Shown one piece after another: positions 1 to 50,295 of a stretch of 50,295 nt of DNA. Origin of the DNA: Psammoneis japonica (taxonomy: Eukaryota); the NCBI GenBank assembly GCA_008632985.1, contig QPGO01000216.1, forward strand, positions 62,001 to 112,295, in the 5' to 3' direction. Each line of letters opens with the position of its first letter. Within the stretch, counting starts at the first letter, position 1. The notes beneath the pieces were generated by a model. That model was given only the letters and a program-made list of their open reading frames with translations, was not told the DNA's origin and did no database searches. The translations under genes were made by a program, and so were the position numbers.

Positions 1-3000
1 CACACCGCAGTGTCTCCCGCCACACTTCTTGCTTACGGTGTTTGTTGGGAGCAAGAGGGCGACACTGCATGCGACTGCCACGTAAAGCTTGTTAAAAGAA
101 TTTTTGGCAATAAACCTGTGCTTGACAGGGTTGCTTTTTGTTCTGACCGTGGCCATTGGACACTTAAGTTGCTTGTCTGTCTGTTGGAGAACGGGGCTGA
201 AGTTCATGGTGCGGTGCGTCATCAACATTGGTGTCAGTTTACCTGCAATCAAGATTTGAAGACAGGTGACCCGCGGACATTGATTGACAAAGTTGGGCCA
301 TCGACTCTTTGCACTGGCACAGGGAAGGTTGCAGATCGGGACATTTGTCTGAATGCATGTCGAAATGGCACAAATGGCATAGCGCTTGCAATGTCGTCGA
401 TCATTGGCGGAGCGCATTGGGATTGTGTGCCGATTGAGCCAAAGCAAGTCTCTGCTCGAATTCCATGCGCTTGCAGTTCAGAGTGGCGCCAAGCTCTTAC
501 TTTTCATCCATTTCTCCTGGACAAGAACAGCAGCATTGATGATGAAACAATGTTGATGTTGGGCAAATTGGGCATCGATCATGTCACTGAGTGTCAAGGA
601 CATGTAGAATGGCGTGCTGCTCGGAAAAACGCAGTGACCTCATCAGGTGCCAACACACAAGTGTCAATGCAGCTTAAGATTGACAAAGAAAGAGAGCAGC
701 GACGACCGCATTGGGTTGTCATTGAAGAGCATCTTAGCACTTCGTCGGGCATCGTGGGAGATGAGTCAAACAATGAGGCAAGCAGAGTCTCGCAAGCTGA
801 TGCTGTGGGAGTGGAAGATGGTCATGTCAACCAAACTGCTGATGGCTCTGAGAACAATGTGGGAGAACAAGTGGGCCTGGAGCACCATTTGGCCGAGATC
901 GAAAAAGGACTAGATTCTGACATGGACATGGCTGACTTCCAAAAGGACTTAGATTCTGACATGGATGACGATGAACGACTCTTAGCCATTGAAAGCCGAG
1001 TGGATGAAGCAAAAGAGAAGAGAAGGGAGCAGAAAGAGAAAGCAAAGGAGCTGCTGAGTGACGCAGCTGACACGACCGCAAGAAACAATGAGCTGCGTGT
1101 CAAACTCACAGCAGATTTGAAAGCGGGCTTACACAAAAATTTGCTCAAGGACATCACAAAGCAGATGGGATGGAAAGTTCTAAAGACAAGTGGTGGAAAC
1201 TTGAAGAATGCCATTAAATGGCTAGAGGCTTCACTGGCCTCTTGTCCCTTCATTGTGCTCAGCAAACCTCAGCTGCAAGCGAAGTGTCGTGGGTGCATTA
1301 ACAGCACGGCACCGTCTAGTGTCAACACGGTCCCTCAGCTGGTGGCTGTTTTAAGTGGCAAAACTTCTGCACCCGTCGCCTCAAAAGACACTGTGGATCC
1401 AACCACGCCTCTTGAAGCTGCCATTCACACCAACTTTCTTCCTCCGCTTAAAGGCGAAGCAGCAGAATTGTGTAAGACAGGTCATCAGATGGAGCCCAAG
1501 TATGGAGAAGATCTTCTCACCGTTACAAAAGATGGTTTGTCGCTGGAGAATGGTTCTATTTTGTCGGTGGACTGTCTCTTTAGAGCTGGATTGCTGCAAA
1601 AAGAAGGAAGACGACATCAGAAGGATTCTCCAGATTTCATTGCTGTCGCATCCCTTGATGGCGAGCGAATCATCGTGGTTGCGGAAATGAAGGCACGATG
1701 CAAATCGTCAACTGCTGCAAAGGAAAGGAAGCGACTCTCAGAAGTCGGCAACTTCTCCATCATTGATTGCAACTCTCCCAAACTGGGCAAGTGCACATTA
1801 AAGCGATCAGAGGCCATCCAGGTTAGTGTCATTCCATGCAATCAAAAGTTTTTTGTACGGACAATGCTCACAAATGCTTTTCCTCGACACACCATCGCAG
1901 TGCGCCCATCATGCTAGCACTGTCGGAGTCAACTATGTCATGCTTGCCACAGGGGACCGCCTGGGTTTAACTGGCACAGTGGTGATCAGGCACAACAATG
2001 AATTTCTAGACAACTGCCAAAAATGTGTTGACGACATGTGTGAATCATCGTTGAAGTGGGCGTGCGATGATGACGTCGACATTCCCGTTGACGAGATAAA
2101 GGTGGCAGCAAAGAAAGCAAGAGTAAAGTTGGACTGTGAGACATTTGTGAAATCATTTTACTTTTGGAAAGAAATGACAAAGGCAAAGAACTTACCATTG
2201 CCACCGTGCAATAGAATCATTCCCATGCAGGACGGGTGTTGGAACTTGACCAAGTGTGGATCAGACGTTAAAACGCAGCATTGCCAAGAACAAGCCGCTT
2301 GTGTTCCTGAGGATTCACCAGGTGCAAAGGCGTTTGACCGTGTGCAGATGACAGTGCTTTCCGACGTGCAAAAGGGTGCTCAGAATTTCTTCACAAACTC
2401 TGATCTGGAAAAATGCAAGAATCTTGACTCGTGTCGCGACTGCACCCGTCACACTTTGAGCTTCATGGAAGCTCTCATGCAAGCATCTTGGATGTTTGAG
2501 ATGCTTTCCAAAGGACAGCAAGGGGATGGGAACAGTGCAAGAGCACCTGCTGACAGGCCAATGGTGACTCCAGCCAGGCCTTCAGAAGCAAGACGGTGGC
2601 TGAGAGGCTCGATTGAGCAAGAGGATACCGCCACAATTGCAAAGGAGTCCAGCAAGTCCCCCAAACGCGGCATTTTACCCGCTCTGACAAATCAACCAAA
2701 CACTCTTGAAAAAGCACATCCCCACAAGCGCTTCAAGCATTGTAAAGGCATGCCATTGCCTGGAGCATGCCCTGACACAGGGAACGATGCTGGATCCGGA
2801 GGCTTGGGTCATTGCATTCTTTGCAAGAGAAAGACCCACTTTTTTTGCTCTGACTGCAGGAATTGGTTTTGCCATGACAAGTCACGTCCTGACGACACCA
2901 GAGCTCCATATTTTCGAGACGCTGCAACACATCAAAACGGAAATAGTCAAATCACTGGCAAGCACACGTGCTTTGTGCAGTGCCATCCGACGACATTGTC

Positions 3001-3031
3001 CAACTTGGAAAAAAGACATGCACCAGAATGA
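1..3031 (+). pseudogene. piggyBac-like DDD transposase with inserted YqaJ-like PD-(D/E)xK nuclease domain; 5'-truncated by the window; exons <1-1821 and 1901-3031
   Basis: piggyBac-type motifs: SDRG(H<Y)W..L...L...G..V.G.VR (D at 145), WNLTKCGSD (2240-2266, compare YNxxKGGVD), and C-terminal CxxC..CxxC..C..CxxxH. Between them are YqaJ motifs Q..EW..AR...TSS, G...E, SPD, EMK and Q. Frame is open but has only ~5 Tyr in ~983 codons, so it is decayed. Confidence 0.7.
1822..1900 (+). other. 79-nt phase-0 spliceosomal intron
   Basis: CAG|GTTAGT donor, CTCAC branch-like site at 1867-1871, CGCAG acceptor. Removal joins ORFs 10..1917 and 1826..3031 in frame (EAIQ|CAHHASTVG), completing the nuclease Q-motif. 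Confidence 0.8.
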
Positions 3032-4898: not shown

Positions 4899-5087
4899 GG
4901 ACAATCTGTTGTCCCAAACATGTTCTCTGAAATGCCTTTTGTCTGTAGAAGCAGTGCAGAAGCTTCAGGCCATTGAGAACTCGTTCGGAGAAACCAAAAA
5001 TCACAGAGTGTAAAATTTAATCTCACAATTTTCACTTTTCATGCTTGATTCTACTTTCGTTTACACTCATTCTTTGAGCACAGTGCA
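4899..5087 (+). repeat. Tandem duplication of the 3' half of LTR-L (copy of 4712-4898)
   Basis: Both units run GGACAATCTGTTGTC...GAGCAYAGTGCA. Confidence 0.85.
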
Positions 5088-5226
5088 CGTGACGGGAGAT
5101 CCATTGCACGGAGAGAGTCGGCGATAACTTGATGGACACGCTCAACGAAAGCGCCAGCTTGAGGATTCTTGATTGTTGCAGGCTTCGGCTTGACTCCACA
5201 ACTGCAGAGAAGATCCGTAAACTCAG
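5088..5226 (-). pseudogene. Gypsy integrase core fragment (likely the continuation of element G1)
   Basis: EFTDLLCSCGVKPKPATIKNPQAGAFVERVHQVIADSLRAM. Confidence 0.8.
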
Positions 5227-5467
5227 GATGGGTTCCAGTCCCAGGTGGGACTTTTTGTGACATTTGCCCAGCAGAATTCTACGTGCAAGCTCTGCAGTTC
5301 ACACTCTGGTCAATGGATGCATTTGTCTTCGACATAAAATAAACGGCCAAGTTTGCAGCACATGTGTCTCTGCACGCACTCAAAGTTTTGGATGATGCGC
5401 CTGCCCTGCACCATTCTTGAGACACTCGAGAATGGCGTAGAAGGAAAAAATGTTAAAAGTTGTTGAC
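5227..5467 (+). mobile_element. Truncated, mutated copy of MITE-like element X
   Basis: Aligns with 46489-46729 and starts at the same terminal inverted repeat. Interrupts gypsy integrase sequence. Confidence 0.7.
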
Positions 5468-5479
5468 ATCCACGGACCG

Positions 5480-5758
5480 TGACAGGATTTGAACAGGATT
5501 CAGGTGCGCACGAAATGTCGCGCGCCATTTTAGTTTACCGCGCACAGTTTTGTGTGCTCTTTAGTTCCGCGTGCACGCACGTGATGCAGTTTGCTTTCGA
5601 GCCACACGGCTCACAAGAACAATGACAGCAGCCCAATTGTACCAACTTACATGTCTTTTGGCTCCTGCAACAGTCTCTGAGCGGAGACTCATCTGCCACT
5701 TAGACAGCAGCAAGGAGTCATTGTTTGAATTCTTGCCATTTGCCTTCAATTTCTGTCA
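5480..5758 (+). repeat. 5' LTR of copy A
   Basis: TGACAGG...TTCTGTCA; direct repeat of 12262-12540. Confidence 0.95.
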
Positions 5759-5775
5759 GATTGACAGTCTTGCGC
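5759..5775 (+). promoter_or_regulatory. Primer binding site (putative tRNA-Asn half-molecule); also at 17690, 32659 and 45473(-)
   Basis: GATT(A/G)ACAGTCTTGC directly after the 5' LTR. Its reverse complement GCAAGACTGTTAATC is an anticodon arm with GTT. Confidence 0.65.
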
Positions 5776-6694
5776 ATCTGCCCATTGAGCAACCGCCATC
5801 ATCGTCGTTGATTTACCGACGATGCTATTTCAATTCTACGTGGACCTCCGTGCATGTTCTGCATGTACATCGGCAAGTCCACACGCATTCAATGCCAGGC
5901 ATCGGCAGGAATTTAACGTCACCGTCAAGTCTCCTTGCCGCTGGACATCTGGATTGATCACACTGCCTTTTGTCGCTGAAGACATGCATTCAACGGTTAC
6001 ATCCAAGTCTGTCCTTGATCCTCATCCCTTGACACACCCATTCAACGGTTAACGGTCAAGAACCCCACACATTCAAAGATCTACGTCGCTGAAGACATGT
6101 GCACACACATGTCTTCACGGCCAAGAACTTGAACCCACTCTTTGGACTGCGGCTTTGCCACCACTCTACAAGCACACCGAGTCTGTTGTACCTGATCTAC
6201 CCTGGACCACTGGTGCTCCACAGTTCCACTAGGTCCACGAGGATGACTGTGAGATCAAGCAGCTGTGATTACAGCCTACGTTGGGGCGAGGGTGTTTTCC
6301 CGCGTTTGTTCGTTCGTCCACAGCGCCTGACACCTGCGTCAACTGGCCAGCCTGATCGGGAAATCTAACCGACATAAAATAAGAACGAATTGGGGGTCTT
6401 GTCCACCTCTAGTCAGCTTACCTGCAGGGGTTTACAACCCGCTACTCCGCTCGTAAGCAACCCAAAGCGCCACTGGCTGTGGGTTCGGACGTGCCAGCAC
6501 AACTCTACGGACTGGATGGGAAGTTTAGCACTTGACAACGAACGGGATAGCACAACCCAGCGACTTCTGATTTTAAGATAGTTCAAGATTTCAAGTCAAG
6601 TCCATTTCAAGTCAAGTCCATTCCCACTCAAGTTTCAAGTCTACCTCCACGTCCTGACAAGAATCGCCTGCCCTGACACCATTTCTTGTCTGCC

Positions 6695-9600
6695 ATGGTT
6701 CTTACTCATCAGCAACAAACCGATGGTTTTGAGCACATTGTTGGAACCGTACTTGCCCAAGGTGCTGGAAGCCCTCTTTGTTTGGCTTTGACCCATGACA
6801 GCATGGACTTGTGCCAAGAACTGTTCACGTTCATACCTTCCCAAATCGACTCGCTTGAGTGCGATAACGGCACCAATGTGATCCCATTGCCCCAAGGTTA
6901 TAAGAACATGTTAGCAGCTCTAGTTAGTCTGTACATTGTCAAAGCACACAAAGGCCTTGATGTTGCCAATGACTCCTCATTGTTCATGCATGATGAGTTT
7001 CTTGCTTGCCGCCTCAGCCCCGACTGCATGTCTTCTGTGTCCGTCGGCAGCTCACCTCTTGCACCTCCGCATGTCACCAACCCGACCAAGGCACGCGACC
7101 CAGTGCGAGACTTCAAGCGAGGCATCAAGCGTGACCCCACTGCTTTCACGGCTCTCAAATCCGACAAGCAGTGGCACACTTGGCACACCTCACTTGTGGC
7201 ACAAGCCCATGCCCAAGACGTCGAGTGCATTCTAGACTCGTCGTACAAACCGACCAGCCCCGAAGACAAACTGCTCTTTGCTGAACAGCAAAAGTGCATG
7301 TTCGCCGTCTTCGAATGCATCCTTCTCACCGACAAGGGCAAAGCTCTCATTCGCGAAAATGTGGGGTCTTCTGACACCCAGACCGTCTGCCACGCCTTGT
7401 CCGAGTGTGCGCTCGCCTCCACCCGCGCATCTATCGAGTCCTCCACCTTGCTCACGCACCTCACCACCGCACGCCTTGGTGATGGCACTTGGAAAGGTCC
7501 GACCCACGGGTTCATCCTTCATTGGCAGGATCAGTTGCGCAAGTGCGAGGCACTCATCCCGGCCAGTGACCACTTCTCTGAAGGACAGAAGCGCGTCATG
7601 CTCGAGAATGCCGTACATCCTGTCGAGGAACTCCGCGCCGTCAAGAACCAAGCTGATCAACATCGCACGCAGAGTGGCAAGAGCCTCACATGCGATCAAT
7701 GTTGTGGCTTGCTCCTCTCCGCGGCGGCTCAACACGACAGCACGTTTCAACCCAAGACGACACCTCGAGCTCCCCGCCGCGCCACACACGCACACGACAT
7801 CTGCTCCGAGGAACCATCCGATGATGTGTTCTATGACATCGACAGCGACATTGACGTCCTTCAGGCTAACGCTGCCTACACCCGCGGTCCCAGCCTCACC
7901 GGCGACCAATGGAAACGTCTCCCTCCCAACCACCAACGGATTTGGGATTCATTGCCCAATTCCTCCAAGGCGATCATCCTTGAGCATTCTCGTCCACCTC
8001 CCTGCAACCCATGAGCCGGCAACTGCCATGAGTCCATTGCGGTCAACCTTCACGACCAATGACTTGGGAGTGACGGTGATGTCAACTTGTCCGCCACAAC
8101 TCCTGCTGACTCTGGTGATCCCACTCCAAATGTGAGTGCCACTTCAGACAATCCCATTCTGGTGCAACGCCTGTTGTCTCCTAACCAAGCCCCCAACGCC
8201 AGTCGACCGGGCCCATCCGCCGCTCCCTCTACCTCGCCTGCTCCTCCAGATGACATGGAACTTAACGGCTGCACTTGCCGCCGCGTCAACAACCACAATG
8301 TCATTTGCTCTGCCTCCGCTCATCGCTCTACACGCACTGGTGCTCTAGTCGATCGTGGAGCCAATGGCGGCATTGCTGGCGATGACGTTCACGTCATTGC
8401 ACACACCTCTCACCAAGTCGACGTTCAGGGCATTGACGACCATCAATTGGTGGACATCCCCATTGTCACCGCTGGTGCTGTCATTGAGACACAGTGTGGC
8501 CCCGTCATCACCATCCTCCATCAGTGCGCACACATGGGAAAAGGCAAGACCATTCATTCCTGTGGCCAGCTCGAATGGTACAAACATGATGTCAACGTTT
8601 GCTCTGTCAAGGTGCCCAACGGCTTGCAGCGTGTCGCCACCCCTGATGGCTGTGTCATCCCAATTGACATCAAGGGTGGCCTGCCTTATGTTGCCATGCG
8701 ACCCCACACTGATGACGAATGGGACACCCTGCCACATGTCATCCTTGCCGGTGATGACACATGGGACCCTTCCGTCCTTGATCACTCTATCACTGACGAC
8801 GACCAGTGGTGCGACGCGATCTCTGACCTGCAGGACGATCCCACTGCCAACCTGTTTGACGAGTGCGGCAACTGCCATCACCGTGTCATTGTCAACAAGG
8901 CCATCATGTCTGCCTCCTTGTCTGCCGATCACGCGTCCGCCCTCGATGACCACCTCATTCCGAATGAAGACGTGTTCTACGAGTGTCATCTACACGCGAT
9001 TGACCCCAAGGACGATGACGTTCCACCTCCAGAGCGCAATGTGCAGCCCAAGGAACCCCCCTGCGAGTCTCTTCGGCCCTGCTTTGGTTTCCAACCTGCC
9101 GACACGGTTCGTTGCACTTTCGACTGCACCACGCAATGCGCCCGGTACGCACCTTAAGAAGGCCTGCAAATCGCCCAACCCCGCCCTTAATGTGCACCGC
9201 CGCAACAAGCCTGTCGCCACTGACACCGTTTGTGCCGACACCCCGGCCATCGACTCTGGTTGCACCAGCACCCAACTGTTTGTTGGTGCCAAGTCTACCG
9301 TCACTGACGTCTGCGGCACCAAAACCGACAAAGAGTTTGTCAACACACTCGAGGATCAGATCTGTGAGCATGGTGCTCCATCCAAACTCATCAGCAACCG
9401 TGCTCAAGTTGAGATCAGCAACAAGGTGCTCGAGATTCTACAAGCCCTCTTCATCTCCAGCTGGCAAAGCGAGCCTCACCAGCAACACCAAAACTTTGCC
9501 GAACGCCAACACCAGACCGTGAAGCGCATGGCGAACACCATCATGGACCGTTTCGGTTCGCCTGCCCACACATGGCTGCTGGCACTCATGTGCGTTTGCT

Positions 9601-12261
9601 TCGTGCTCAACCACACAGCGTCCCCACGTCTCCACTGGCGCATGCCCCTCGAGACTCTTGCTGGCTCCACCCCGGACATCAGCCCATTGCTCCGCTTTCA
9701 CTGGTGGGAACCTGTGTGCTTCCACCTCGATGACTCCGATTGGCCGTCCGAATCCCGTGAGTTGCGTGGATGCTTTGTTGGCATTGCTGAGCACGTTGGC
9801 CACCAGATGTCCTTTGAGATTCTTTCTGATGACACTCAGAAGATCCTCTGCCGGTCCAATGTACGATCCGCTACCACCGATCCTTCCGTTCAAAACCTGC
9901 GTCTTGATCCTCCTGATGGGGAGCCACCTGAACCCATCATCAGATCTCGCCATGACAACAACCCCGTTGATTCACCTGATGGGGAGATCAGGACACCCAA
10001 GATGCCAGTTTTCAATCCGCAAGACATCATTGGACGCACCTTCCTCATGCAGCCACAAGAGGATGGACAATGCCACAGAGCTCGCATCGTCAAGGCAGTC
10101 GAAGATCACAACTGGAAAGTGAACGGCAACCCCGAGCTCACTAAGTTCATCTGCTCTGTCAACAACGACGAATACGAGGAAGTCCTGGCCTGCAACGACA
10201 TCATGAATCACATCGAGCAAGAAGACGAAGACACCACTGTTTGGAAATTTCAACGCATTGTGTCACACGAAGGACCTCTGAAGCCTCATGACCCAACCTG
10301 GAAGGGCTCAAGCTACAACATCATGCTTGAATGGGAAAGTGGGGAGATCACGTCCGAGCCTCTTGCCATCATCGCCAAGGATTGCCCTGTCACCTGCGCC
10401 ATGTGTGCACGAGAGAACGGACTTCTCGACACTGATGGCTGGAAGTGGTTCCGCACCATCGCGAGGCGCCAGAAGAAGCCATTCCGCATGGCCAACCAAG
10501 CCAAGCTTCGCTCCTTCTGCACTGCACCTTGCTAAAAGTGCGGACACAAAGTTCCCCGGAACTACAAACACGCCATGTCCCTAGACGAACGCAACGGCAA
10601 CCGCAAATGGGGAGACGCAACCAATCTTGAGATGGACCAACTCAATGAATACGAAGTCTTTCATGACTGCGGGCCCTCCGAGTTTTCCACTCCTCCTGCG
10701 GGACACAAGAAGATCCGAGTGCACCTGGTGTACGACGTGAAACACGACGGCCGCCACAAGGCACGACTTGTAGCCGATGGACACCTCACGGACGCACCCA
10801 TTGACAGTGTCCACTCTGGAGCATTCTCCCTTCGTGGCCTTCGGCTGATGATTTTCCTGGCCGAACTCAATGAGTTGGAGACATGGGCCACCGACATTGG
10901 CAATGCCTGCCTTGAAGCCACCACCAAGGAGAAGCTGTACATTGTAGCTGGACCTGAATTTGGCAAACTCGAAGGCCACATTCTTGTCATCTACAAGGCC
11001 CTGCATGGACTGCGCAGCTCTGGTCTCCGCTGGCATGAGCGCTTCGCCGACTGCCTGCGAGCTGAAGGTTTCTTCCCCTGCCGCGCCGAACCCAACATTT
11101 GGATGCGCAGGAACGGCGACCACTGCGAATTTGTTGCCGTTTATGTGGATGACCTCGCCATTGCCATGAAGGATCCTCAATCTTTCGTCGACACCCTCAC
11201 GGAAAAGCACAAGCTCAAGCTCAAGGGCACAGGACCGATTGAGTTCCATCCAGGCTGCGACTTCTCCCGGGATCCTGACGGCACCTTGTGTCTGTCTCCA
11301 TGCAAGTACATCAAATGCATGGTTGACAGCTGCACACAACTGTTTGGGGAGAAACCTGCCACCAATGTCCTGTCCCCTCTGGAAAAGGGTGACCACCCCA
11401 AACTGGACACTTCTGAACTGCTGGAGCCCGATGGCATTCAACAGTTCCAGTCTCTTGTTGGTTCCCTCCAATGGGCAGCGTCTCTTGGTCGAATTGACAT
11501 CACCACGGCTGTCATGTCACTCTCTGGCTTCCGAGCTGTGCCCCGTCAAGGTCACTTGGATCATGCCAAACGCATCTGTGGGCACCTCTCCAAGATGCGA
11601 CACGGCGCTCTCCGCGTTCACATGGAAGAACCCAACTGTTCAGATCTCCCTGCACCGGCCTGTGAATGGATGCATTCCGTGTGTGGCGAAGCAGAGGAGA
11701 TGATCCCTGAGGACGCTCCACTGCCCCTTGGCAAGTTTGTCACTGCCACCCACTACGTCGATGCAAACTTGCATCATTGCATGCTCACCGGACGCTCTGT
11801 CATGGGAATGCTCCACTTCCTCAACAAATTCCCGGCTGATTGGTTCTCCAAGAAGCAAGCCACCGTGGAGACTGCGACCTGCGGGTCTGAATTTGTTGCC
11901 ACAAGGACTTGTGTCGAGCAGATTGTCGACCTGCGCATCACCCTGCGTTACCTCGGCGTCCCGATCCGTGACATTAGTTGCGTGTTCGGTGACAACAAGT
12001 CGGTTGTGGACAGTGCCACCATCCCGCACTCCAAGTTACACAAGCGACACACCGCTCTGTCGTTCCACCATGTGCGTGAAGCGATTGCCTCTGGTTGCCT
12101 TGAGTTCCACTTCATCGAAGGCTCCCGCAACCCTGCTGACATTCTCAGCAAGCATTGGGGTTGCTCCCAAATCTGGGACCTTCTCCGTCCCCTCATGTTT
12201 TGGAACTTCATTCCATCCGAAGTCGAGTCTGTTTCTGTGACTCCTCAAGCAAACTGGGGAG
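6695..12261 (+). pseudogene. gag-pol of copy A (stops, deletions, frameshift)
   Basis: PR DRGANGG; IN ATDT / S(N<D)RAQVE / EPHQQHQNFAE; RT KARLVADG, YVDD; RH YVDANL, GSEF, GDNKSV, NPADILSK. Confidence 0.92.
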
Positions 12262-12540
12262 TGACAGGATTTGAACAGGATTCAGGTGCGCGCGAAATGT
12301 CTCTCGCTATTTTAGTTTGCCGCACACAGTTTTGTGTGCTCTTTAGTTCCGCGCGTACGCATGCGATGTAGTTTGCTTTTGAGCCACATGGCTCACAAGA
12401 ACAACAACAGCAGCCCGATCATGCCAACTTACACGTCTTTTGGCTCCTGCAACAGTCTCTGAACGGAGACTCATCTGCCATTTAGACAGCAGCAAGGAGT
12501 TGTTGTTTGAATTCTTGCCATTTGCCTTCAATTTCTGTCA
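12262..12540 (+). repeat. 3' LTR of copy A
   Basis: Follows PPT AAACTGGGGAG; 279 bp. Confidence 0.95.
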
Positions 12541-26740: not shown

Positions 26741-26747
26741 GATATAC

Positions 26748-39231: not shown

Positions 39232-42200
39232 TGTAACTTGGAGTGCGGGATGGTGGCACTGTCCACAACCAACTTGTTGTCACCGAACATGTAACTAATG
39301 TCACGGATTGGGACGCCGAGGCAACGCAGAGTGATGCGCAGGTCGACAATCTGCTCGACACAAGTCCTTGCAGCAACAAATTCAGACCCGCAGGTCGCAG
39401 TCTCCACGGTGGCTTGATTCTTAGAGAACCAATCAGCCGGGAATTTGTTGAGGAAGTGGAGCATTCCCATGACAGAGCATCTGGTGAGCATGCAATGATG
39501 CAAGTTTGCATCGACAGTGGGTGGCAGTGACAAACTTGCCAAGGGGCGGTGGAGCGTCCTTCGGGATCATCTCCTCTGCTTCGCCGTACACGGAATGCAT
39601 CCATTCACAGGCTGGTGCAGGGAGATCCGAATGGTTGGGCTCTTCCGTGTGAATGCGGAGAGCGCCGTGTCGCATCTTGGAGAGGTGCCCACAGACGCGT
39701 TTGGCACGATCCAAGTGACCTTGACGGGGCGCAGCTCGGAAGCCAGAGAGTGACATGACGGCCGTGGCAATGTCAATTCGACCAAGAGACACTGCCCATT
39801 GGAGGGAACCGACAAGAGACTGGAAGTGTTGAATGCCATCGGGCTCCAGCAGTTCGGAAGTGTCCAGTTCAGGGTGGTCACCCTTTTCCAGAGGGGACAG
39901 GACGTTGGTGGCAGGTTTCTCCCCAAACAGTCGTGTGCAGCTGTCGACCATGCGTTCGATGTACTTGCGCGGAGACAGACACAAGGTGCCGTCAGGATCC
40001 CGGGAGAAGTCGCAGCCTAGATGGAACTCAATCGGTCCCGCACCCTTGAGCTTGAACTTGCACTTTTCCGTGAGAGTGTCGACGAAAGATTGAGGATCCT
40101 TCAAGTCCATGGCGAGGTCATCCACACAAACGGCAACATGTTCATAGTGGTCACCGTTCCTGTGCATCCAAATGTCGGGTTCAGCATGGCAGGGGAAGAA
40201 ACCTTCAGCTCGCAGGCAGTCGGCGAAGCGCTCATGCCAGCGGAGACCGGAGCTGCACAGTCCATGCAGGGCCTTGTAGATGACAAGAATGTGGCCTTCG
40301 AGTTTGCCAAATTCGGGTCCAGCTACAATTTACAGCTTCTCCTTGGTGGTGGCTTCAAGGCAGGCATTGCCAATGTTGGTGGCCCATGTCTCCAACTCAT
40401 TGAGTTCGGCCAGGAAAATCATCATCCGAAGGCCACAAAGGGAAACTACTCCAGAGCAGACACTGTCAATGGGTGCGTCCGTGAGGTGTCCATCAGCTGC
40501 GAGTCGTGCCTTGTGGCGGCCGTCATGTTTCACGTCGTACACCAGGTGCACTCGGATCTTCTTGTGTCCCGCAGGAGGAGTGGAAGACTCGGAGGGCCCG
40601 CAGTCATGAAAGACTTCGTAATCATCGAGTTGGTCCATCTCAAGATTGGTTGTGTCTCCCCATTTGCGGTTGCCGTTGCGTTCGTCTAGGGACATGGCAT
40701 GTTTGTAGTTCCGGGGAACCTCGCATCCACACTTGTAGCGAGGTGCAGTGCGGAAGGAGTGAAGCTTGGCTTGGTTGGCCATGCAGAATGGCTTCTTCTG
40801 GCGCCTCGCGATGGTGCGGAACCGCTTCCAGCCATCAGTGTCGAGAAGTCCGTTCTCTCGTGCATAGATGGCGCAGGTGACAGGGTCATCCTTGGCGATG
40901 ATGGCAAGAGGCTCGGACGTGATCTCCCCACTTTCCCATTGAAGCATGATGTTGTAGCTTGAGCCTTTCCAGGTTGGGTCATGAGGCTTCAGAGGTCCTT
41001 CGTGTGACACAATGCGTCGAAATTTCCAAACAGCAGTGTCTTTGTCTTCTTGCTCGATGTGATTCATGATGTCGTTGCAGGCCAGGACTTCCTCATATTC
41101 GTCGTTGTTGACAGAGCAGATGAACTCAGTGAGCTCGGGGTTGCCGTTCACTTTCCAGTCATGATCTTCGACGGCCTTGACGATGCGAGCTCTGTGGCGT
41201 TGTCCGTCCTCTTGTGGCTGCATGAGGAAGGTGCGTCCTGATGATGGGTTCAGGTGGCTCCCCATCAGGAGGATCAAGATGCAGGTTTCAAACGGAAGGA
41301 CCAGTGGTGGCGGATCGTACATTGGACCGGCAGAGGATCTTCTGAGTGTTGTCAGAAAGAATCTTAAAGGTCATCTGGTGGCCGACGTGCTCAGCAATGC
41401 CAACAAAGCGTCCACGCAACTCACAGGATTCGGACGGCCAATCGGAGTCATCGAGGTGGAAGTGCACGGGTTCCCACCAGTGAAAGCGGAGCAATGGGCT
41501 GATGTCTGGGGTGGAGCCAGTGAGAGTCTTGAGGGGTGTGTGCCAGTGGAGACGTGGGGACGCTGTGTGGTTGAGCATGAAGCAAACGCACATGAGCGCC
41601 AGCAGCCATGTGTGGGCAGGCGAACCGAAACGGTCCATGATGGTGTTTGCCATGCACTTCACGGTCTGGTGTCGGCGTTCGGCAAAGTTTTGGTGTTGCT
41701 GGTGAGGCTCGCTTTGCCAGCTGGAGATGAAGAGGGCTCGTAGAATCCCGAGCACCTTGTTGCTGATCTCAACTTGAGCATGGTCGCTGATGAGTTTGGA
41801 TGGAGCACCACGCTCACGGATCTGATCCTTGAGTGTGTTGACAAACTCTTTGTCGGTTTTGGTGCCGCAGACATCAGTGACGGTAGACTTGGCACCAACA
41901 AACAGTTGGGTGCTGGTGCAACCAGAGTCGATGGCCGGGGTGTCGGCACAAACGGTGTCAGTGGCGATGGGCTCGTTGCGGCGGTGCACATTAAGGGCGG
42001 GGTTGGGTGATTTGTAGGCCTTCTTAAGGTGCGCACCAGCGGGCATGCGGGCGCATTGCGCGGTGCAGTCGAAAGTACGACGAACCGTGTCGGCAGGTTG
42101 GAAACCAAAGTGGGGCCGAAGAGACTCGTAGGGGGGTTCCTTGGGCTGCACATTGCACTCCGGAGGCAGGACGTCATCGTCCTTGGGGTCAATCGCGTGT

Positions 42201-45200
42201 AGATGACACTCGTAGAACACGTCTTCATTCGGAATGAGGTGGTCATCGAGGGCGGATGCGTGATCGGCAGACAAGGAGGCGGACATGATGGCCTTGTTGA
42301 CAACGACACGTGACGGCAGTTGCCGCACTCATCAAATAGGTTGGCAGTGGGATCGTCCTGTGGGTCAGAGATCGCATCGCACCACTGGTCGTCGTCAGTG
42401 ATAGAGTGATCGAGGACGGAAGGGTCCCATGTGTCATCACCGGTGAGGATGACATGTGGCAGGGTGTCCCATTCGTCATCAGTGTAGGGTCGCATGGCAA
42501 CATAAAGCAGGCCACCCTTGATGTCAATTGGGATGACACAGCCATCAGGGGTGGCGATGCGCTGCAAGCCGTTGGGCACCTTGACAGAGCGATCGTTGAC
42601 ATCATGTTTGTGCCATTCGAGCTGGCCACAGGAATGAATGGTCTTGCCTTTTCCCGTGCATGCGTGCTGATGGAGGATGGCGATGACGGGACCACGCTGT
42701 GTCTCAATGACGGCACCAGCGGTGACAATGGGGATGTCCACCAATTGATGGTCGTCAATGCCCTGAACGTCGACTTGGCGAGAGGTGCATGCAATGACGC
42801 GAACGTCGTCGCCAGCAATGCCACCGTTTGGCTCCACGATCGACTAGAGCACCAGTGCATGTGGAGCAATGAGCGGAGGCAGAGCAACTGACATTGTGGT
42901 TGTTGACGCGGCGGCAAGTGCGGCCATTAAGTTCTATGTCATCTGGAGGAGCAGGTGAGGTAGAGGGAGCGGTGGCTGGGCCCGGTCGACTGGCATTGGG
43001 GGCTTGGTTAGGAGACAACAGGCGTTGCAGGTCACCGGGTGGCAGTGGCTTGCACTTGGTGAGATGCGCCAGAATGGGACCATCTGAAGTGGCATCCACA
43101 TTTGGAGCGGGATCACCAGAGTCAGCAGGAGTCGTGGCGGACAAGTTGACATCACCGTCACTCCCAAGTCGTTGGTCGTGAAGGTTGACCACAACAGACT
43201 CATGGCAGTTGCCGGCTCGTGGGTTGCGGGGAGGCGGACGAGAATGCTCAAGGATGATCGCCTTGGAGGAATGGGGCAACAAATCCCAAATCTGTTGGTG
43301 GTCGGGAGGGAGACGTTTCCATTGGTCGCCGGTGAGGCTGGGACCATGGGTGTAGGCAGCGTTAGCCTGAAGGACGTCAATGTCGCTGTCGATGTCACAG
43401 AACACATCATCGGATGGTTCCTCGGAGCAGACGTCGTGTGCGCATATGGCGCGGCGGGGAGCTCGAGGTGTCGTCTTGGGTTGAAACGTGCTGTCGCATT
43501 GAGCCGCCGCGGAGAGGAGCAAGCCACAATGTTGATCGTATGTGAGGCTCTTGCCACTCTGCGTGCGATGTTGATCAGCTTGGTTCTTGACGGCGCGGAG
43601 TTCCTCGACAGGATGTACGGCATTCTCGAGCATGACGCGCTTCTGTCCTTCAGAGAAGTGGTCACTGGCCGGGATGAGGGCCTCGTACTTGCGCAACTGA
43701 TCCTGCCAATGAAGGATGAACCCGTGGGTCGGACCTTTCCAAGTACCATCACCAAGGTGTGCGGTGGTGAGGTACGTGAGCAAGGTGGAGGACTCGATAG
43801 ATGCGCGGGTGGAGGCAAGCGCATGCTCGGACAAGGCGCGGTAGACGGTCTGGGCGTCAGAAGACCCCACATTTTTCCGAGTGAGAGCCTTGCCCTTGTC
43901 GGTAAGAAGGATGCGTTCGAAGACGGCGAACATGTGCTTTTGCTGTTCAGCAAAGAGCAGTTTGTCTGCAGGACTGGTCGGTTTGTACTACGAGTCTAGA
44001 ATGCACTCGACGTCTTGGGCACGGGCTTGTGCCACAAGTGAGGTGTGCCAAGTGTGCCACTGCTTGTCGGATTTGAGAGCCGTGAAAGCAGTGGGGTCAC
44101 GCTTGATGCCTCGCTTGAAGTCTCGCACTGGGTCGCGTGCCTTGGTCGGGTTGGTGACATGCGGAGGTGCAAGAGGTGAGCTGCCGACGGACACAGAAGA
44201 CATGCAGTCGGGACTGAGGCGGCAGGCAAGGAACTCATCATGCGTGAACAACGAGGAGTCATTGGCAACATCAAGGCCTTTGTGTGCTTTCACAATGTAC
44301 AGACTAACTAGGGCTGCTAACATGTTCTTATAACCTCGGGGCAGTGGGATCACATTGGTGCCGTTATCGTACTCAAGCGAGTCGATTTGGGAAGGTATGA
44401 ACGTGAACAGTTCTTGGCACGAGTCCGTGCCGTCATGGGTCAAAACCAAACAAAGAGGGCTTTCAGCACCTTGGGCAAGTACGGTTCCAACAATGTGCTC
44501 AGAACCATTGGTTTGTTGCTGACGAGTAAGAACCATGGTAGACAAGAAACGGTGTCAGGGCAGGCGATTCTTGTCAGGATGCGGAGGTAGACTTGAAACT
44601 TGAGTGGGAATGGACTTGACTTGAAATGGACTTGACTTGAAATCTTGAACTATCTTAAAATCAGAAGTCGCCGGGTTGTGCTATCCTGTTCGTTGTTAAG
44701 TGCTAAACTTCCCATCCGGTCCGTAGAGTTGTGCCGGCGCGTCCGGACCCGCAGCTGGTGGCGCTTTGGGTTGCTTACGAGCAGAGTAGCGGGTTGTAAA
44801 CCCCTGCAGGCAAGCTGACTAGAGGTGGACAAGACCCCCGAACCGTTCTTATTTTACATCGGTTGGATTTCCCGATCAGGCTGGCCAGTTGACGTAGGTG
44901 TTAGGCGCTGTGGACGAATGAACAAACGCGGGAAAACACCCTCACCCCAACGTAGGCTGTAATCACGGCTACTTGCTCTCACAGTCGTCCTCGTGGACCT
45001 AGTAGAACTGTAGAGCACCAGTGGTCCGGGGTAGATCAGGTACAATAGACTCGGTGTGCTTGTAGAGTAGCAGCAAAGCCACAGTCCAAAGAGTGGGTTC
45101 AAGTTCTTGGCCGTGAAGATGTACACACACATGTCTTCAGCGACGGAGATCATTGAATATGTAGGGTTCTTGACCGTTAACCGTTGAATGGGTATATCAA

Positions 45201-45752
45201 GGGATGAGGATCAAGGATAGACTTGGATGTAACCGTTGAATGTATGTCTTCAGCGATAAAAGGTAGTATAATCAATCCAGATATCCAGCGGTAAGGAGAC
45301 TTGACGGTGCCGTTAAATTCCTGCCGATGCCTGGTATTGAATGCACGTAGACTTGCCGATGTACACGTAGAATATATACGGAGGTCCACGTAGAATTGAA
45401 ACAGTGTCGTCGGTAAATCAACGACGACGATGGCGGTTGCTCAATGGGTTGACAATGAGCAAGACTGTTAATCTGACAGAAATTGAAGGCAAATGGCAAG
45501 AATTCAAACAATGACTCCTTGCTGCTGTCTAAATGGCAGATGAGTCTCCGCTCAGAGACCGTCACAGGAGCCGAAAGACGTGCAAGTTGGTATGATCGGG
45601 CTGCTGTTATTATTCTTGTGAGCCATGTGGCTCGAAAGCAAACTACATCGCGTGCGTACGCGCGGAACTAAAGAGCACACAAAACTGTGTGCGGTAAACT
45701 AAAATGGCGCGCGACATTTCGCGCGCACCTAAATCCCATTCAAATCCTGTCA
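39232..45752 (-). mobile_element. Copia family 1 copy D, inverted (5' LTR 45752-45474; gag ATG 44536; truncated within RNase H)
   Basis: Reverse complement of the family 1 sequence; 279-bp LTR; PBS at 45459-45473. Confidence 0.93.
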
Positions 45753-46331
45753 AGCGGAGGGAGTCCATTTGTGAGTCTCGATGAACTTCTGATGGTGGTG
45801 CTATGTCTTGATGATTTTTTTAAATTGGGACTTTGTCATGTGGGTGCCTTCAACACCATTTGTGCACACTTTAGCATGGTCATCAAGAACAGAAATGTCA
45901 CTGCCGTCTAAAGAATCGGCACCCACATCGTCTTTGTCAGGAAAAGAAAGATCACTGGCATGACCGTCAAGGTCTCCGGATGCAGACGGTACACTGGCGT
46001 GATCATTGCCTTGAGCAGACGAGTCGTTGCCATTGGAGTCATCTTCAGAGCTAAGATTGACGTCATCAGACAGGTTTGCCGCCACGTTGGATGTCAAAAA
46101 GATGTCATTGAGCAAGCCGTCGTGGTCTCGAGACGTGACAAAGGGGTGTGATGGGCGAATTTCGCATTCGGTGTTATCAACGAATGATTCAGAGTGAGAG
46201 GAGAGACGTCGCTTTTGCTTGGGCATGACTTTGAGATGGGGCATGGTTGCAACGGCAGGATGGGCAAACCGCCATGGGCCATTGCGGCATGAACAGAGGA
46301 CGTAGAAACCCACGGACTTCTCGTCATACAA
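45753..46331 (-). other. Acidic low-complexity ORF fragment of unknown origin (possibly a transposase N-terminus), cut by copy D
   Basis: PKQKRR basic patch followed by D/S-rich tract; no diagnostic motif. Confidence 0.25.
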
Positions 46332-46488
46332 CTTTCGCGGTTCTGTGCTGATTCACCAGAAACACAGGGGATTAGACCCATAGATCACAAGCAGAAGGGA
46401 CAAATGCATCGAACACGACTGCCCAGAGGAATGGTGCCAATGAAAGATTGTGATTCGGTGGAGAGGAGGGGGTTTTGGAGGGAAAGCA

Positions 46489-46878
46489 GACGCGTTCCAG
46501 CCCTAGGTGGGACTCCGTGTGACATTGGGCCCGTAGAATTCTACGTGCGAGCTCCGTAGTACGAGAATCTAATTAATGGATACATTTATCTTAAACATCA
46601 AATAAACGGCCAAGTTTGTGGTACAATTATGCCTCTTGCGACTCGACGTTTTTGCAAATGCGCCCACCCTACGCGATTCTTAAGACATTAAAGAATCGCG
46701 CTGTAACAAAAAATGTCAAAAGTTGTTGGACGGATCGCTCATTAAGTGTACCGTAAAATGAGACAAAATATCGAAAAAATCACGTAGAAATCTACGTGCG
46801 CGACATACGACGTGATTCAAAAAACTATCGATGTCACAGTTCAGTAGTACGAGGTCCCACCTGGACCTGGAACGCGTC
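46489..46878. mobile_element. MITE-like element X (390 bp)
   Basis: 25-bp TIRs (22/25 match: GACGCGTTCCAG...GGTGGGAC), inner inverted CGTAGAWTTCTACGTG motifs, flanked by AGCA/AGCA. A second partial copy begins at 5227. Confidence 0.6.
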
Positions 46879-47100
46879 AGCAGAAAAGGGTGGAAAATTT
46901 CGCAGAATTATCGACATTCATCATGAGGACGGAACTGCAGAAATTTGGGCGAAAATGCCACACACAACATGAAAATGAATGTGTTTCGGCTGGAACGAAA
47001 TGCAATTGTCCTCAGTTGAGGGAACAACACGGCCGTGTGACTTGGTGTTTTGGCATTCAAGTCAACAAATGTAATTTAAATAAAATGCATTGTGCAGCAA

Positions 47101-47436
47101 TGAATGCGTGACATTCTAATCTGTGAATTGAAAATAAATAAAAATGTTGTCTTTGCAATGGGTGAATGTCAATAATCTGGAGGGGGGTCTGCCAATCTGT
47201 GCGCGCGTGTGCACGCCATGAGAGGGTGGGGTTTGATGACTTGTGACTCAAGGCCTTTTTGCAAGGTCTAACTTGAAAAGACTTGACATTCTTGAGAAAA
47301 ATTGTGAAAAGACTTGGAAGGGCTCGCTGATGGGGAACCCTGGCCAACATCTCCGTTGTTGTCTAATGCGTCAACCAATTGCACATGTCAGAGGAGGCAC
47401 TCTCGGTCATCAGAGCACAAACAACTATTTCGTTCA
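47101..47436 (-). repeat. Probable 3' LTR of gypsy G3 (PPT AGAGGGGAAGAG at 47448-47437)
   Basis: On the minus strand the PPT is followed by TGAACG. The distal end (...ATTCA at 47101) is a best guess. Confidence 0.5.
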
Positions 47437-47539
47437 CTCTTCCCCTCTATGGTGCAAGGAACCCGCGCGCCATGGAATCACTTGACTACATTCAAACTAA
47501 AACATGAAGAAAGGGAAACCCAGACGTTGGGAAGAAAAC

Positions 47540-50295
47540 CCTCAACTTCGATGCGGCACCAATCAACGGATGTTAATCCGTTCCATTACATGTGGTGCAC
47601 GCACAATCGAAACAGTCCCATTGGTGTGGACTTGTGCTATCCGAAATGGTCCAAAAGCCCGTTCTTGCAACCTAGCTGGTTCCACGGACTTGATTAAAAC
47701 ATCTTGTCCGACTTGATGATCAAAAGATCATCGCTTCACGTTCTGTCTTCGGAGATTTTCATTGATGAGGACTTGGCAATTGGCTTGCATCGTAGCTAAA
47801 TCCACAACAACTGGGAGATCCAAAATCATGTCTCGGTGGAATACGAGCGCACCCGGTCAAATTCCCATGGATCTTGAGTGTGAGCAACGGAGAGCACAGG
47901 AAGCAGTGGCTAAGGCATCATCCACTGTTTGAGCCACCTGTTGAACATCATGAGGAGTGTTAGCAACCAGCACCATTCGCAAAATGTTAGCTGCCGTTTG
48001 ATGCATGTGTTTGCAAATCGCGTTTGCCATTGGGTTGTGCGAGGCAGCAGGTGCATCTGCTGTTCCGGCTTGATTTAGTAACATCTGAAACTCCCAGCCA
48101 ATGAATTCACCACCATTGTCATGGACACAGCGGTTTGGCCTGGGACAGCGAGACAACCAAAGATTGCAAAATTTGTCAGTCACATGTTGCAAGGTTTTGT
48201 TTTCAATGCAAGTGAGTTCCGCAAGCCCAGTTGCTGCATCAATGCATGTGAGGGCTTTGAATTCAATTTCTTGGCCCTGAACATCAACTTTCCAGGGGCC
48301 AATCAAATCCACTGCTGCTTCTGTCCAGGGTGCCAAGGGTGCTTCTCGCTCTGGCAGTTTGCCACATCCTGGTCCGAGTTGTTTAAAATGCTGACAGGTG
48401 TCACACACTAATTCATTGCAGGAGCTGTGCAAAGCAGGATGCCACAGGTGAGTGCGAATGCTCTCATACATGTGCACAATTCCGCAGTGTCCGAGCACAT
48501 GATGGCACCACGAAATCACATCGGGCAACAATTCAGTGGGAATGCAAATCTTCCATAAACCCGGTGGATCAGTCGGCCGCACACGACAACAAATCAACGG
48601 TTGGTCATTGACAATTTTGATGACAAATTCCTGGGGATTCTGTTGCTGTTGTTCATTCAACTCATGGTCCTCGAATTGAAATTGTTGCATCCACAGCATC
48701 TCTGACGGATTCAGCATCTCTTCCAAACTTGGACAATTAAGAAAGCATTCAAACAGTTCTGGCTCATCAACAAGTGAGGAAAATGCGTGAGACTCATTCA
48801 TCTTTGCATGAGAGCATTTAAAATGGGATGCCAAAGTGCAGAGTTCATCCTCGAGTTCATCTTTAGCTAGTTCCGACATGTCCAACTTTTCAAAATCAAC
48901 AATTGTGCCTCTGGGCTTGCTGTTTGGTCCTTGACTCTTCCCCTCTGAAGGCAGATCCATTCGTGGGAGTCAAGAAAAACAGTCTGCAAGCACGTCATCC
49001 TTGCCTTCAACATGTCGCCGAGTAACATAATGCGAAAAACTCTTTGAAGCACATTGCAACAGCAAGGAGTTCCTTTTCCATCATTGAATAACTGCGTTGT
49101 GTTGCAGAAAGTTTCTTAGACCAACAGGCAACTGGTTGGCCATCTTGAATGGTGGCTGCACCCATTTGACAGTCTGATGAATCGGTGCATGCGTGAAAGG
49201 GACTATTGTGGTTTAGATGCACCATGAGAGCTTCAGATGCGACGATGGCTTTCATTTCATCAAAAGCTTTCTGGCATGCTTCGGTCCATTCGAATGGGCC
49301 TTTGCCTGTCAGGTCTGTCAAGGGAGCTAGAAGGTGCGATCGATGAGGCCACATGTTTCGGCAGCAAGTGACAGCACCAAGGAACGACCGCAGTTGAGAG
49401 ATGTTACGAGGCGGTTGCAACCGTAGGATGCCTCGACTTTCTTCTTCCAGGGTTTAATTCCATTTGGCGTGAGCCAATGCCCTGGGAAGTCAGTTTCCTG
49501 GACACACCACTCACACTTGAGCGGATTAACCTTGAGGCCATTCTCCTGTAGATGATGTAAAACTTTGTTAAGGCGGGTTAGATGTGATTCAAAAGTGTTG
49601 TCAAACATGCCCACGTCATCAACGCACGTTTCCACGTCTACGTCATGCATGATCTTTTCAATTGCTGCTTGTGCAATGCCGGGAGATGTCTTTAATCCCA
49701 TGGCCATCCGACAGTGTTGGAATTTCCCATGCGGAGTCACTGTCGTCGTCAATTCCTTTGATTCCTCCTCCAACTCAAGATGATAAAAGAAGATGGTGAG
49801 ATCAATTTTCGTGAAAAATTTACATCCAGCACGGCATTGCAATGCATCTTGAATCACTGGTAAAGGGCAGACCTTTTGCTTGAGTACTTTGTTGAGTTCT
49901 CTAAAATCTGAGACCCAACAAACTTGACCATCTTTCTTGGGAGCAACAAAAGCACCCGATGCCCATTCCGTTGGTCCACAAGGGCGTAGCACCCCAACAT
50001 TAACACGATGCTTGAGCTCTTTCTTGAAGGCCTCTTGATTCATTTGAGGGACTGCATGCGGTTTGGAATGACAAGGTGTTGCACCTTCTTCCACCTCCAG
50101 GTGAACCTTCTCGTGCGGATAGACTCCTAATGTGCCATCAAACAAGGTGTCATATTTTGCCAGCACTCATTGGAGTTGTTGTCGTTGGTCTTCCGTCAAG
50201 TGATGCAAATCTTTAACAATGTTGGCAGCATCAGTTGGTTTGTACTTCGCATCGAGAATGCAACCAGCACAGGCATCGTCCAATTCGTAGGAGTC
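47540..50295 (-). pseudogene. Gypsy element G3 pol (RT-RH-IN), running off the window end
   Basis: SDFRELN, CVDD (<YVDD), TDSSD.QMG, EKELL, HHVLGH..CDTC, VDLIGPW, HDNGGEF, NP.ANAI, GPF motif near 47650. Confidence 0.92.

Follow-up and report, generated by a model that had tools for sequence, protein, structure and literature searches.

TpA-to-TpG/CpA hypermutation beside CpG decay in a nest of dead LTR retrotransposons from Psammoneis japonica

The window analysed here, a stretch of 50,295 bases of contig QPGO01000216.1 in the Psammoneis japonica assembly GCA_008632985.1 (positions 62,001 to 112,295, forward strand), is a nest of dead long terminal repeat (LTR) retrotransposons: four copies of one copia family (A to D), two gypsy relics (gypsy-1 and gypsy-2) and an unclassified element. 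Self-comparison revealed the copia family as one 7-kb element in four copies with pairwise identities of 92.7-95.0%; an RVT_2 match (E 3e-23) and LTR termini of the form TG..CA identify it as a copia-type LTR retrotransposon. The elements decayed in place by two separate dinucleotide-specific transition processes, one acting at CpG and the other at TpA. The latter, in which TpA is converted to TpG and CpA, runs in the direction opposite to the repeat-induced point mutation (RIP) of fungi and is the main subject of this report. An original prediction, made from the sequence alone, had described such a strand-symmetric hypermutation of repeats. Its observation as a whole was confirmed far beyond chance, and all coordinates and hand counts that we re-checked were right. 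Its interpretation stood with respect to the direction of change, the involvement of both strands, the action on DNA and the co-occurrence with CpG change, but not with respect to a proposed repair mechanism based on DNA polymerase eta (Pol-eta), two of the element types said to be affected, and novelty. The prediction knew of no description of such a system, yet the accessible part of a preprint by Mettrop et al. (10.64898/2026.01.13.699255) reports hypermutation by A>G and T>C at TpA only, in the alga Bigelowiella natans.

At a GC content of 51%, the window is poor in TA (observed/expected ratio, o/e, 0.32) and rich in TG (1.47) and CA (1.37), with CG at 0.78. It carries a long-term footprint of the B. 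natans type, that is, clusters of TpA-poor and CpA+TpG-rich 1-kb segments: 40 of 50 such segments fall under the TpA cut-off of the preprint (TA o/e of at most 0.43), and 8 of 50 additionally pass its CpA+TpG cut-off (at least 1.52). Over these segments TA and CA+TG are inversely related (Spearman -0.51). The copia sequences on which most of the analysis was done are the following.

5479 to 12542, plus strand: copia copy A, full length, inserted into gypsy-1 (self-BLAST; RVT_2 at 10536-12371)
About 5479-5760 and 12261-12542, plus strand: LTRs of copia A, with TG..CA termini and a 5-bp target duplication, GACCG/GACCA
17530 to 24456, plus strand: copia copy B, with a truncated 5' LTR (17530-17691) and a 3' LTR at 24175-24456
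32398 to 39231, plus strand: copia copy C, with a 5' LTR at 32399-32660, a break about 20 bp into the 3' LTR and its own 5' flank
39232 to 45755, minus strand: copia copy D, with a 5' LTR at 45472-45752, a break about 220 bp before the 3' LTR and its own 5' flank
45190 to 45296, minus strand: 107-bp untranslated block of copy D, with homologues at 5933-6039 (A), 17867-17973 (B) and 32836-32942 (C)
24976 to 25310, plus strand: isolated copia fragment, homologous to 11920-12254 of A

Alignment of the four copies yielded 663 variable columns with transitions as opposed to 80 with transversions. Almost all transitions lie in pyrimidine-purine (YR) dinucleotides, and only about 66 transition columns fall outside CpG and TpA. 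TpA sites are variable at 119 and invariant at 44 positions; the corresponding numbers for CpG are 272 and 202, which bears out the predicted co-occurrence with CpG to TpG/CpA change. Mixed YR sites contain CA, TG and CG (42 sites), CA, TG and TA (44 sites) or CA and TG alone (42 sites), while no site in the four-copy alignment holds both CG and TA. Two examples illustrate the pattern. The QK[Y] codon of the gag gene reads TGC at 7295 in A, CAC at 19210 in B, TAC at 34196 in C and CAC at 43936 (minus strand) in D. In the 107-bp untranslated block, copy D has 11 TpA, at which TG or CA is found in 10 (A), 11 (B) and 5 (C) cases, with 0, 3 and 3 other differences, respectively.

Rates of change were derived from two reconstructed ancestors. 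With a majority-rule ancestor, which assumes no direction, A>G is found at 42 of 396 TpA versus 45 of 4884 other A (odds ratio 12.8, p 4e-25) and T>C at 28 of 384 TpA versus 50 of 4676 other T (p 6e-13), and changes in the opposite direction have low per-site rates (C>T at CpA, 24/2104; G>A at TpG, 31/1656). The comparison of TpA with other A:T sites, which the original prediction had named as a check, thus came out far on the side of TpA. The second ancestor follows a YR rule, taking CG if any copy has CG and otherwise TA if any copy has TA. Counted per copy-site, A>G then occurred at 135 of 648 and T>C at 109 of 656 TpA, showing that both strands are hit, compared with 8/1260 (ApA) and 11/1604 (GpA) for A>G and 10/1168 (TpT) and 14/1896 (TpC) for T>C. 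At CpG, C>T amounts to 209/1944 and G>A to 205/1952; other transition classes remain at 0.3-0.9% and transversions at 80/24112. Relative to other A:T sites, the TpA rate is elevated 13-fold under the majority rule and about 30-fold under the YR rule.

The extent of decay differs between the copies. Of 161 recognised ancestral TpA, 79 are kept in A, 88 in B, 112 in C and 119 in D, and of 472 ancestral CpG the same copies keep 346, 355, 398 and 375. Each copy has therefore lost at least 26-51% of the recognisable ancestral TpA and at least 16-27% of the CpG; these values are lower bounds because sites that disappeared from all four copies are invisible. Older-looking copies show a greater loss of both dinucleotides. 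Loss is greater at TpA than at CpG, and at either dinucleotide it is ten or more times the background.

Taken on their own, differences between TA in one copy and TG or CA in another are formally symmetric, and could also be produced by a RIP-like process in which C>T at CpA/TpG creates TpA, the TA-rich copies being the mutated ones. RIP does favour CpA, according to the accessible text of PMC2621366. The direction was fixed with the help of an outgroup. We mapped 120 homologous copia proteins (55-68% identity) onto the copies. Tyrosine present in at least 80% of these proteins defines 83 codon-copies with conserved Tyr, of which 33 still encode it; the others have become Cys (32), His (13) or Phe (5). 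By contrast, conserved Cys is kept in 12 of 12 and conserved His in 63 of 68 cases, with none changed to Tyr, and all other conserved residues are kept in 1368 of 1521 cases. Moreover, the 44 sites that combine CA, TG and TA require a TA ancestor, and a model leading from CG via TG/CA to TA predicts some sites with both CG and TA, so that their complete absence speaks against it. Together with the outgroup tyrosines, these three-state sites and the majority-rule ancestor establish the predicted conversion of TpA to TpG and CpA, and with TpA being depleted throughout we consider a RIP-like origin refuted. What the process shares with RIP of ascomycete fungi is a heavy, transition-only mutation of repeats at one dinucleotide on both strands, by which coding capacity is destroyed. 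It differs in that RIP consists of C>T changes, mostly from CpA to TpA, that enrich TpA and lower GC, whereas here the direction is reversed, TpA is destroyed (TA o/e 0.32 instead of a raised TpA and AT content), stop codons disappear instead of being created, and relics present in single copy have not been spared.

The CpG half of the signature probably reflects the ordinary deamination of 5-methylcytosine in methylated repeats. As expected for such decay, CpG is depleted (CG o/e 0.78), the changes are symmetric (209 CG to TG, 205 CG to CA), and conserved Arg of the copia proteins is replaced by His, Cys, Trp or Gln at 22 of 117 codon-copies. Decay of methylated CpG explains, however, no change at TpA, and the CpG and TpA site classes never overlap.

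Mutability of TpA depends on the following base. A>G at TpA is most frequent before T (0.29) and C (0.22) and about half as frequent before G (0.14) and A (0.13); among tetranucleotides ATAT is the most and TTAA the least mutable. This preference for TAY over TAR (Y, pyrimidine; R, purine) makes Tyr to Cys changes outnumber Tyr to His changes without any effect of the transcribed strand. Within each copy, TG and CA outcomes are mixed at random (runs as expected in 4 of 4 copies), and same and different outcomes are balanced at every spacing of more than 2 bp. Therefore, the changes are independent single-site hits on either strand and not strand-coordinated tracts.

That the TpA process acts on DNA after insertion, as the original prediction had proposed, can be read from sequences that were once identical by necessity. 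The two LTRs of an element are identical at insertion owing to the mechanism of retrotransposition. Those of copia A now differ at 21 of 282 positions, namely 9 of the CpG type, 5 of the TA type, 3 CA/TG doubles and 4 others. The two halves of the target duplication of the same element (5474-5478 and 12543-12547) read GACCG and GACCA, the sole mismatch being a CG/CA change. Further evidence comes from the gypsy sequence duplicated beside A and B, where 8 of 525 bp differ (7 CpG-type, 1 TA-type, no other). The isolated copia fragment at 24976-25310 deviates from A by 22 differences including 5 of the TA type, 1 CA/TG double and 5 of the CpG type. The non-copia features concerned here and below are listed next.

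12673 to 15817, minus strand: gypsy-1 relic with gag, reverse transcriptase (RT) and RNase H, interrupted by copia A (RT_RNaseH_2 at E 3.5e-27, Retrotrans_gag, tblastn)
5081 to 5242, minus strand: further piece of gypsy-1 (tblastn)
24587 to 24982, minus strand: gypsy-1 fragment beside copia B, a duplicate of the A flank at 12543-13067
47554 to 50268, minus strand: gypsy-2 relic with RT, RNase H and integrase, of a family other than gypsy-1 (Pfam RVT_1, RT_RNaseH_2 and Integrase_H2C2; tblastn)
1 to 1299, plus strand: open reading frame (ORF) of the unclassified element, open from the window start, with five homologues and without a Pfam family

The LTR pair, the duplicated flank, the A/B junction and the gypsy-2 relic, which sits in DNA of low read depth, all point to action on DNA that was already integrated. 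These observations bear directly on ADAR-like editing of retrotransposon transcripts prior to reverse transcription, a process for which a 5' U preference would be typical (Discussion of 10.64898/2026.01.13.699255, in its accessible part) and with which the excess of sense-strand Tyr to Cys (32) over Tyr to His (13) changes appears compatible at first sight. However, the differences between LTRs, in the flank and in the target duplication rule out editing of an RNA intermediate as the main source, one of the TA-type differences being located in duplicated flank that is not copia at all. ADAR hyperediting would also be confined to A>G on the sense strand before integration, whereas the two strands are affected to a similar extent (135 A>G versus 109 T>C); ApA is not elevated. 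Finally, ADAR enzymes prefer G at the +1 position, while the order found here (T>C>G~A) is the reverse and alone accounts for the Cys excess at TAY codons. RNA editing is thus largely refuted, and we hold any substantial contribution from it to be highly improbable.

The history of the copies determines which comparisons can be used. Since A and B have an identical 3' junction and the same gypsy flank next to it, they go back to one insertion event that was later duplicated. Mutated TpA sites of B are clustered in its 5' two thirds (runs test p 0.002), and the background divergence between A and B, about 2% at the 5' end, declines until none is left in the flank. Copy B is probably a mosaic, and its pattern suggests later gene conversion or recombination; accordingly, the A-B difference as a whole is unusable as one clean clock of post-duplication change. 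Copies C and D meet at 39231/39232, tail to tail and with zero spacer. The possibility that they are a palindromic duplicate sharing a single break was considered and ruled out by the different element end points and 5' flanks; the unlike flanks and 3' break points show that C and D are separate insertions, and differences between them were therefore not used as evidence for change after duplication. Contigs of sequencing run X4 depart from the window sequence at 39232/39233. The summed word depth of 12,000-85,000 in copia compared with about 35-130 in flank, although not a copy number, suggests that the copia family is very high-copy. One database homologue, P0001 (1070 amino acids), matches the same copia RT/RNase H region twice, with residues 1-454 and 456-1069; it is probably a read-through over tandem or nested element copies, on a contig of 1.86 Mb, and it does not belong to the 15 homologues that retain the fewest conserved Tyr.

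The signature is not confined to copia. Conserved Tyr is kept at only 3 of 11 positions in gypsy-1 (Cys 4, His 4) and at 3 of 14 in gypsy-2 (Cys 5, His 3), and TA o/e is 0.19 in the gypsy-1 zone (12561-17519) and 0.26 in the gypsy-2 zone (47230-50291). The first named gypsy relative is a diatom protein with 37% identity. In the ORF at 1-1299, none of four Tyr that are invariant in its homologues is kept (His 3, Cys 1), and Tyr makes up 0.3% of its residues compared with 1.6-3.0% in the homologues. Read as an ORF of 1-1914 on the plus strand, open at the window start, the same region has five homologues at 42-52% identity, with no Pfam family in the ORF or in the homologues; it probably belongs to a mobile element of unclassified type. 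With respect to the families affected, the original prediction thus held for copia and both gypsy relics. Its inclusion of a piggyBac-like gene did not: no piggyBac match was detected by Pfam among 13 + 61 ORFs at E values up to 1, no match to a solved structure was found for three ORFs, and the homologues of the ORF at 1-1914 lack a family assignment. The claim for a miniature inverted-repeat transposable element (MITE) could not be upheld either, the short MITE-like repeats being too diverged for a clean signal (TA-type differences plus CA/TG doubles make up 8 of 54 and 10 of 51).

Relatives of the copia RT were also sought in metagenome contigs, and 49 loci with 64-69% nucleotide identity to the window were recovered. 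In 46 of them TA o/e is 0.52-1.02 and conserved Tyr is kept (0-1 changed to Cys or His). The remaining three, L021, L029 and L036, have TA o/e values of 0.31, 0.27 and 0.13, and Tyr is changed to Cys or His at 10 of 19, 14 of 16 and 12 of 15 conserved positions. L029 and L036 are 94.5% identical to each other; their 79 differences include 25 of the TA type, 20 CA/TG doubles and 8 of the CpG type, and conserved Arg is lost to His, Cys, Gln or Trp at 0 of 23 (L029) and 0 of 22 (L036) positions. Among the 120 database homologues, two (P0116 and P0084) carry the TpA signature. Seven further loci (L010, L016, L035 and L045-L048) combine a CpG o/e of 0.13-0.30 with ordinary TpA (0.52-0.85), and judging from these compositions their hosts appear to methylate CpG without possessing the TpA process. 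The existence of loci with TpA change only (L029, L036) and of others with CpG change only implies that the two processes are separable and that the TpA process is present in other hosts. The TpA signature thus appears to be a property of the host and not of the element family.

Sequencing or assembly artefacts, such as base-calling errors at modified bases in long reads, deserve consideration, as the differences are concentrated in two kinds of dinucleotide, both palindromic and both possible carriers of modifications, and as only 47% of the sampled words of 39232-48500 are present in the contigs of the best run, with the copia copies covered by short contigs only. Yet a contig of 3,800 letters from run X1 (Logan; depth 34.6) matches 47230-50291, i.e. 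3,062 TA-poor bases (TA o/e 0.26), with 0 differences and no gap, and the stretch contains gypsy-2 with its Tyr to Cys/His changes. These reads are from one study and possibly from the window's own sample, so that the support is not independent of the organism; no RNA run is among the sequencing runs listed for the window. The same signature is, however, present in the three metagenome contigs and the two database proteins, all of other records, and in B. natans the process was seen directly by mutation-accumulation sequencing (10.64898/2026.01.13.699255, accessible part). We give an artefact next to no credence.

Co-occurrence of CpG and TpA decay led the original prediction to consider Pol-eta-like error-prone repair (A>G at WA; W, A or T) triggered by T:G mismatches that arise from deamination of 5-methylcytosine. 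In line with a link of this kind, the share lying no more than 5 bp from a mutated CpG is 15% for mutated TpA as opposed to 9% (p 0.016), and proximity is seen in copies C and D individually (p about 0.03); the pooled distance test, however, gives p 0.14. The WA motif includes ApA, where change stays at background (8/1260 versus 135/648 at TpA). In L029 and L036, heavy TpA change is accompanied neither by Arg losses (0/23 and 0/22) nor by many CpG-type differences (8/79), and TpA changes alone are what the accessible text of 10.64898/2026.01.13.699255 reports. The window thus lacks the ApA component, and shows at most weakly the spatial tie to cytosine-deamination mismatches, that non-canonical mismatch repair by Pol-eta would leave, and the idea fits poorly enough for us to regard it as very unlikely.

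The closest known counterpart is found in B. natans. According to the accessible part of Mettrop et al. (10.64898/2026.01.13.699255), mutation-accumulation lines of this alga undergo A:T>G:C hypermutation of integrated viral DNA at TpA only. Of 302 nuclear mutations, 231 fell in two integrated viral regions, one from a giant virus and one from a virophage; 230 of the 231 were A>G or T>C, and each of these 230 lay at TpA. The rate there was about 6e-7, approximately 1000-fold that of the rest of the genome, and the process was seen in 11 of 15 lines only. The same source reports an enrichment of RT and DDE domains in TpA-poor coding sequences as well as 124 clusters of TpA-poor, CpA+TpG-rich windows, and proposes an ADAT2-like protein as DNA adenine deaminase. 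In our literature searches it was the only report, as far as its text is accessible, to describe TpA-directed A:T>G:C mutation of repeats or foreign DNA. The window resembles B. natans in the identical change of TpA to TpG/CpA on both strands of resident DNA, in the TpA-poor state of RT- and DDE-type sequences there and of most 1-kb segments here, and in mutations that, apart from the separate CpG class which the window adds, are almost only A>G or T>C at TpA. It differs in that few segments also pass the CpA+TpG cut-off, that the targets are high-copy LTR retrotransposons and not a giant-virus/virophage insert, and that the decay is long-term and looks steady instead of being restricted to some lines.

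We favour the explanation that these changes result from enzyme-mediated deamination of adenine in DNA, in a 5'-T context and directed at silenced foreign DNA, and consider it, as a whole, to be probably correct. The enzyme would be supplied by the host and would probably be an adenine deaminase of the TadA/ADAT2 type; acting on DNA, it would convert A to inosine wherever A follows T, on either strand, within silenced foreign or repeated DNA. Inosine would then be copied as G, which would turn A:T into G:C and TpA into TpG or CpA. The parts of this statement are not equally firm. That a real TpA process operates at the DNA level is very probable. Targeting to silenced foreign or repeated DNA is a reasonable expectation which we think somewhat better founded than its opposite, and an enzyme would presumably be the agent. 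Deamination as the chemistry is put forward more tentatively, as a candidate that may or may not prevail; it is favoured by the strict requirement for a 5' T, by the +1 pyrimidine preference, which would be TadA/ADAT-like and opposite to that of ADAR, and by the B. natans precedent. The tRNA target of TadA and ADAT2-ADAT3 is U33-A34, often followed by a pyrimidine, and TAY is favoured over TAR here. Both groups of A-to-I enzymes, ADAR acting on double-stranded RNA and TadA/ADAT2-ADAT3 acting on tRNA, leave a deaminated A that is read as G and act next to a 5' U or T; the changes in the window differ from their usual products in being located in DNA, heritable and distributed over both strands, and from ADAR in the +1 preference. 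A DNA activity has been reported for amphioxus ADAT2 (PMC10354150, accessible part).

Several observations weigh against this explanation. The whole window is TA-poor and offers no host gene for comparison. The strong parallel CpG decay has no counterpart in the accessible text of the preprint, in which CpG, LTR, copia and gypsy are mentioned 0 times. TpA decay scales with CpG decay across the copies and looks steady, in contrast to the 11 of 15 lines of B. natans. Strand-coordinated clusters, as processive single-strand deaminases usually leave them, are absent from the four copies, and the slightly raised share of mutated TpA close to mutated CpG (within 5 bp) leaves room for some coupling of the two processes. 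Finally, we know of no enzyme for the TpA process.

Some of these points would be accommodated by a base modification on TpA in silenced DNA, for instance an oxidised thymine such as 5-hydroxymethyluracil or a methylated adenine, that causes mispairing during replication or faulty repair without involvement of a deaminase. Like CpG, TpA is palindromic, and a mark placed symmetrically on it would behave much as seen here, with hits at single sites, independent of one another, on both strands and accumulating alongside CpG decay. On the other hand, the hydroxymethyluracil of dinoflagellates favours both TpA and TpC, and T>C at TpC remains at background here (14/1896). To our knowledge, and in our literature searches, no known mark has been reported to give A:T>G:C at such a rate. 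We regard modification as a serious rival, albeit an unlikely one.

Alternatively, TpA might be hypermutable everywhere in this genome as a context-dependent bias, with repeats displaying the effect merely because they are unconstrained. Every part of the window is TA-poor, including gypsy-2 in its low-depth surroundings, and decay looks clock-like across the copies; both speak for such a bias. It is hard to reconcile, however, with the inferred copia source copy, which is not TA-poor (161 recognised ancestral TpA, with as many as 42 further ambiguous sites, over some 6.4 kb), and with the TA-rich untranslated region of D: at a rate elevated at least 25-fold these could hardly have persisted unless the family arrived recently. 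Segment 4001-5000 has a TA o/e of 0.83, and a contig that departs from the repeat at 46561 continues into TA-rich sequence; together with the TA-rich source copy and the D untranslated region, these hint at either targeting or a recent arrival of the family. In B. natans, the rest of the genome is normal (10.64898/2026.01.13.699255, accessible part). A genome-wide bias therefore seems to us improbable, slightly more so than a base modification. Segment 4001-5000 (CG o/e 1.04) and segment 46001-47000 (TA 0.50, CG 1.15) are weakly decayed and may be young insertions; the latter overlaps a short repeat with a summed word depth of 80,849 at 46304-46970.

Loss of TpA has a further consequence for the appearance of the locus. 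The window contains 42 stop-free frames of at least 200 amino acids on both strands, many of them overlapping in several frames of the same DNA, and such frames are long because TAA and TAG vanish along with TpA. Pfam analysis of the 13 + 61 ORFs revealed no evident host gene in the window. In genomes of this kind dead elements lose their stops, and gene finders would hence call long false ORFs on both strands.

Textbooks cite RIP as the example of a genome mutating the repeats it contains. Not until 2026 was a counterpart directed at adenine reported, from one alga and for viral inserts, whereas the present window shows ordinary LTR retrotransposons being erased over evolutionary time. As the same signature and the same favoured mechanism were described there, as far as that report is accessible, TpA hypermutation is no longer unprecedented. 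Our analysis appears to extend that report by LTR retrotransposons that serve as substrates over long periods, CpG decay running in parallel, a comparison of the rates, a preference at +1, outcomes free of strand coordination, and occurrences in the environment (3 of 49 loci). Any candidate enzyme would have to comply with the relative rates, with the preference for TAY over TAR, with independent single-site hits on both strands and with separability from CpG decay. It is tempting to speculate, although we would put the chances at somewhat below even, that in a host other than B. natans TpA editing serves as a widespread and long-acting eukaryotic genome defence which, beside cytosine methylation, erases LTR retrotransposons, and that it is no speciality of viral inserts in a single chlorarachniophyte. 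If so, L021, L029 and L036 as well as P0116 and P0084 would represent further independent hosts. In metagenome contigs the signature is easily recognised by conserved Tyr changed to Cys or His in combination with low TpA, which offers a means of surveying its spread. The defence envisaged here would strip elements of their Tyr codons and TA-containing signals without creating stops.

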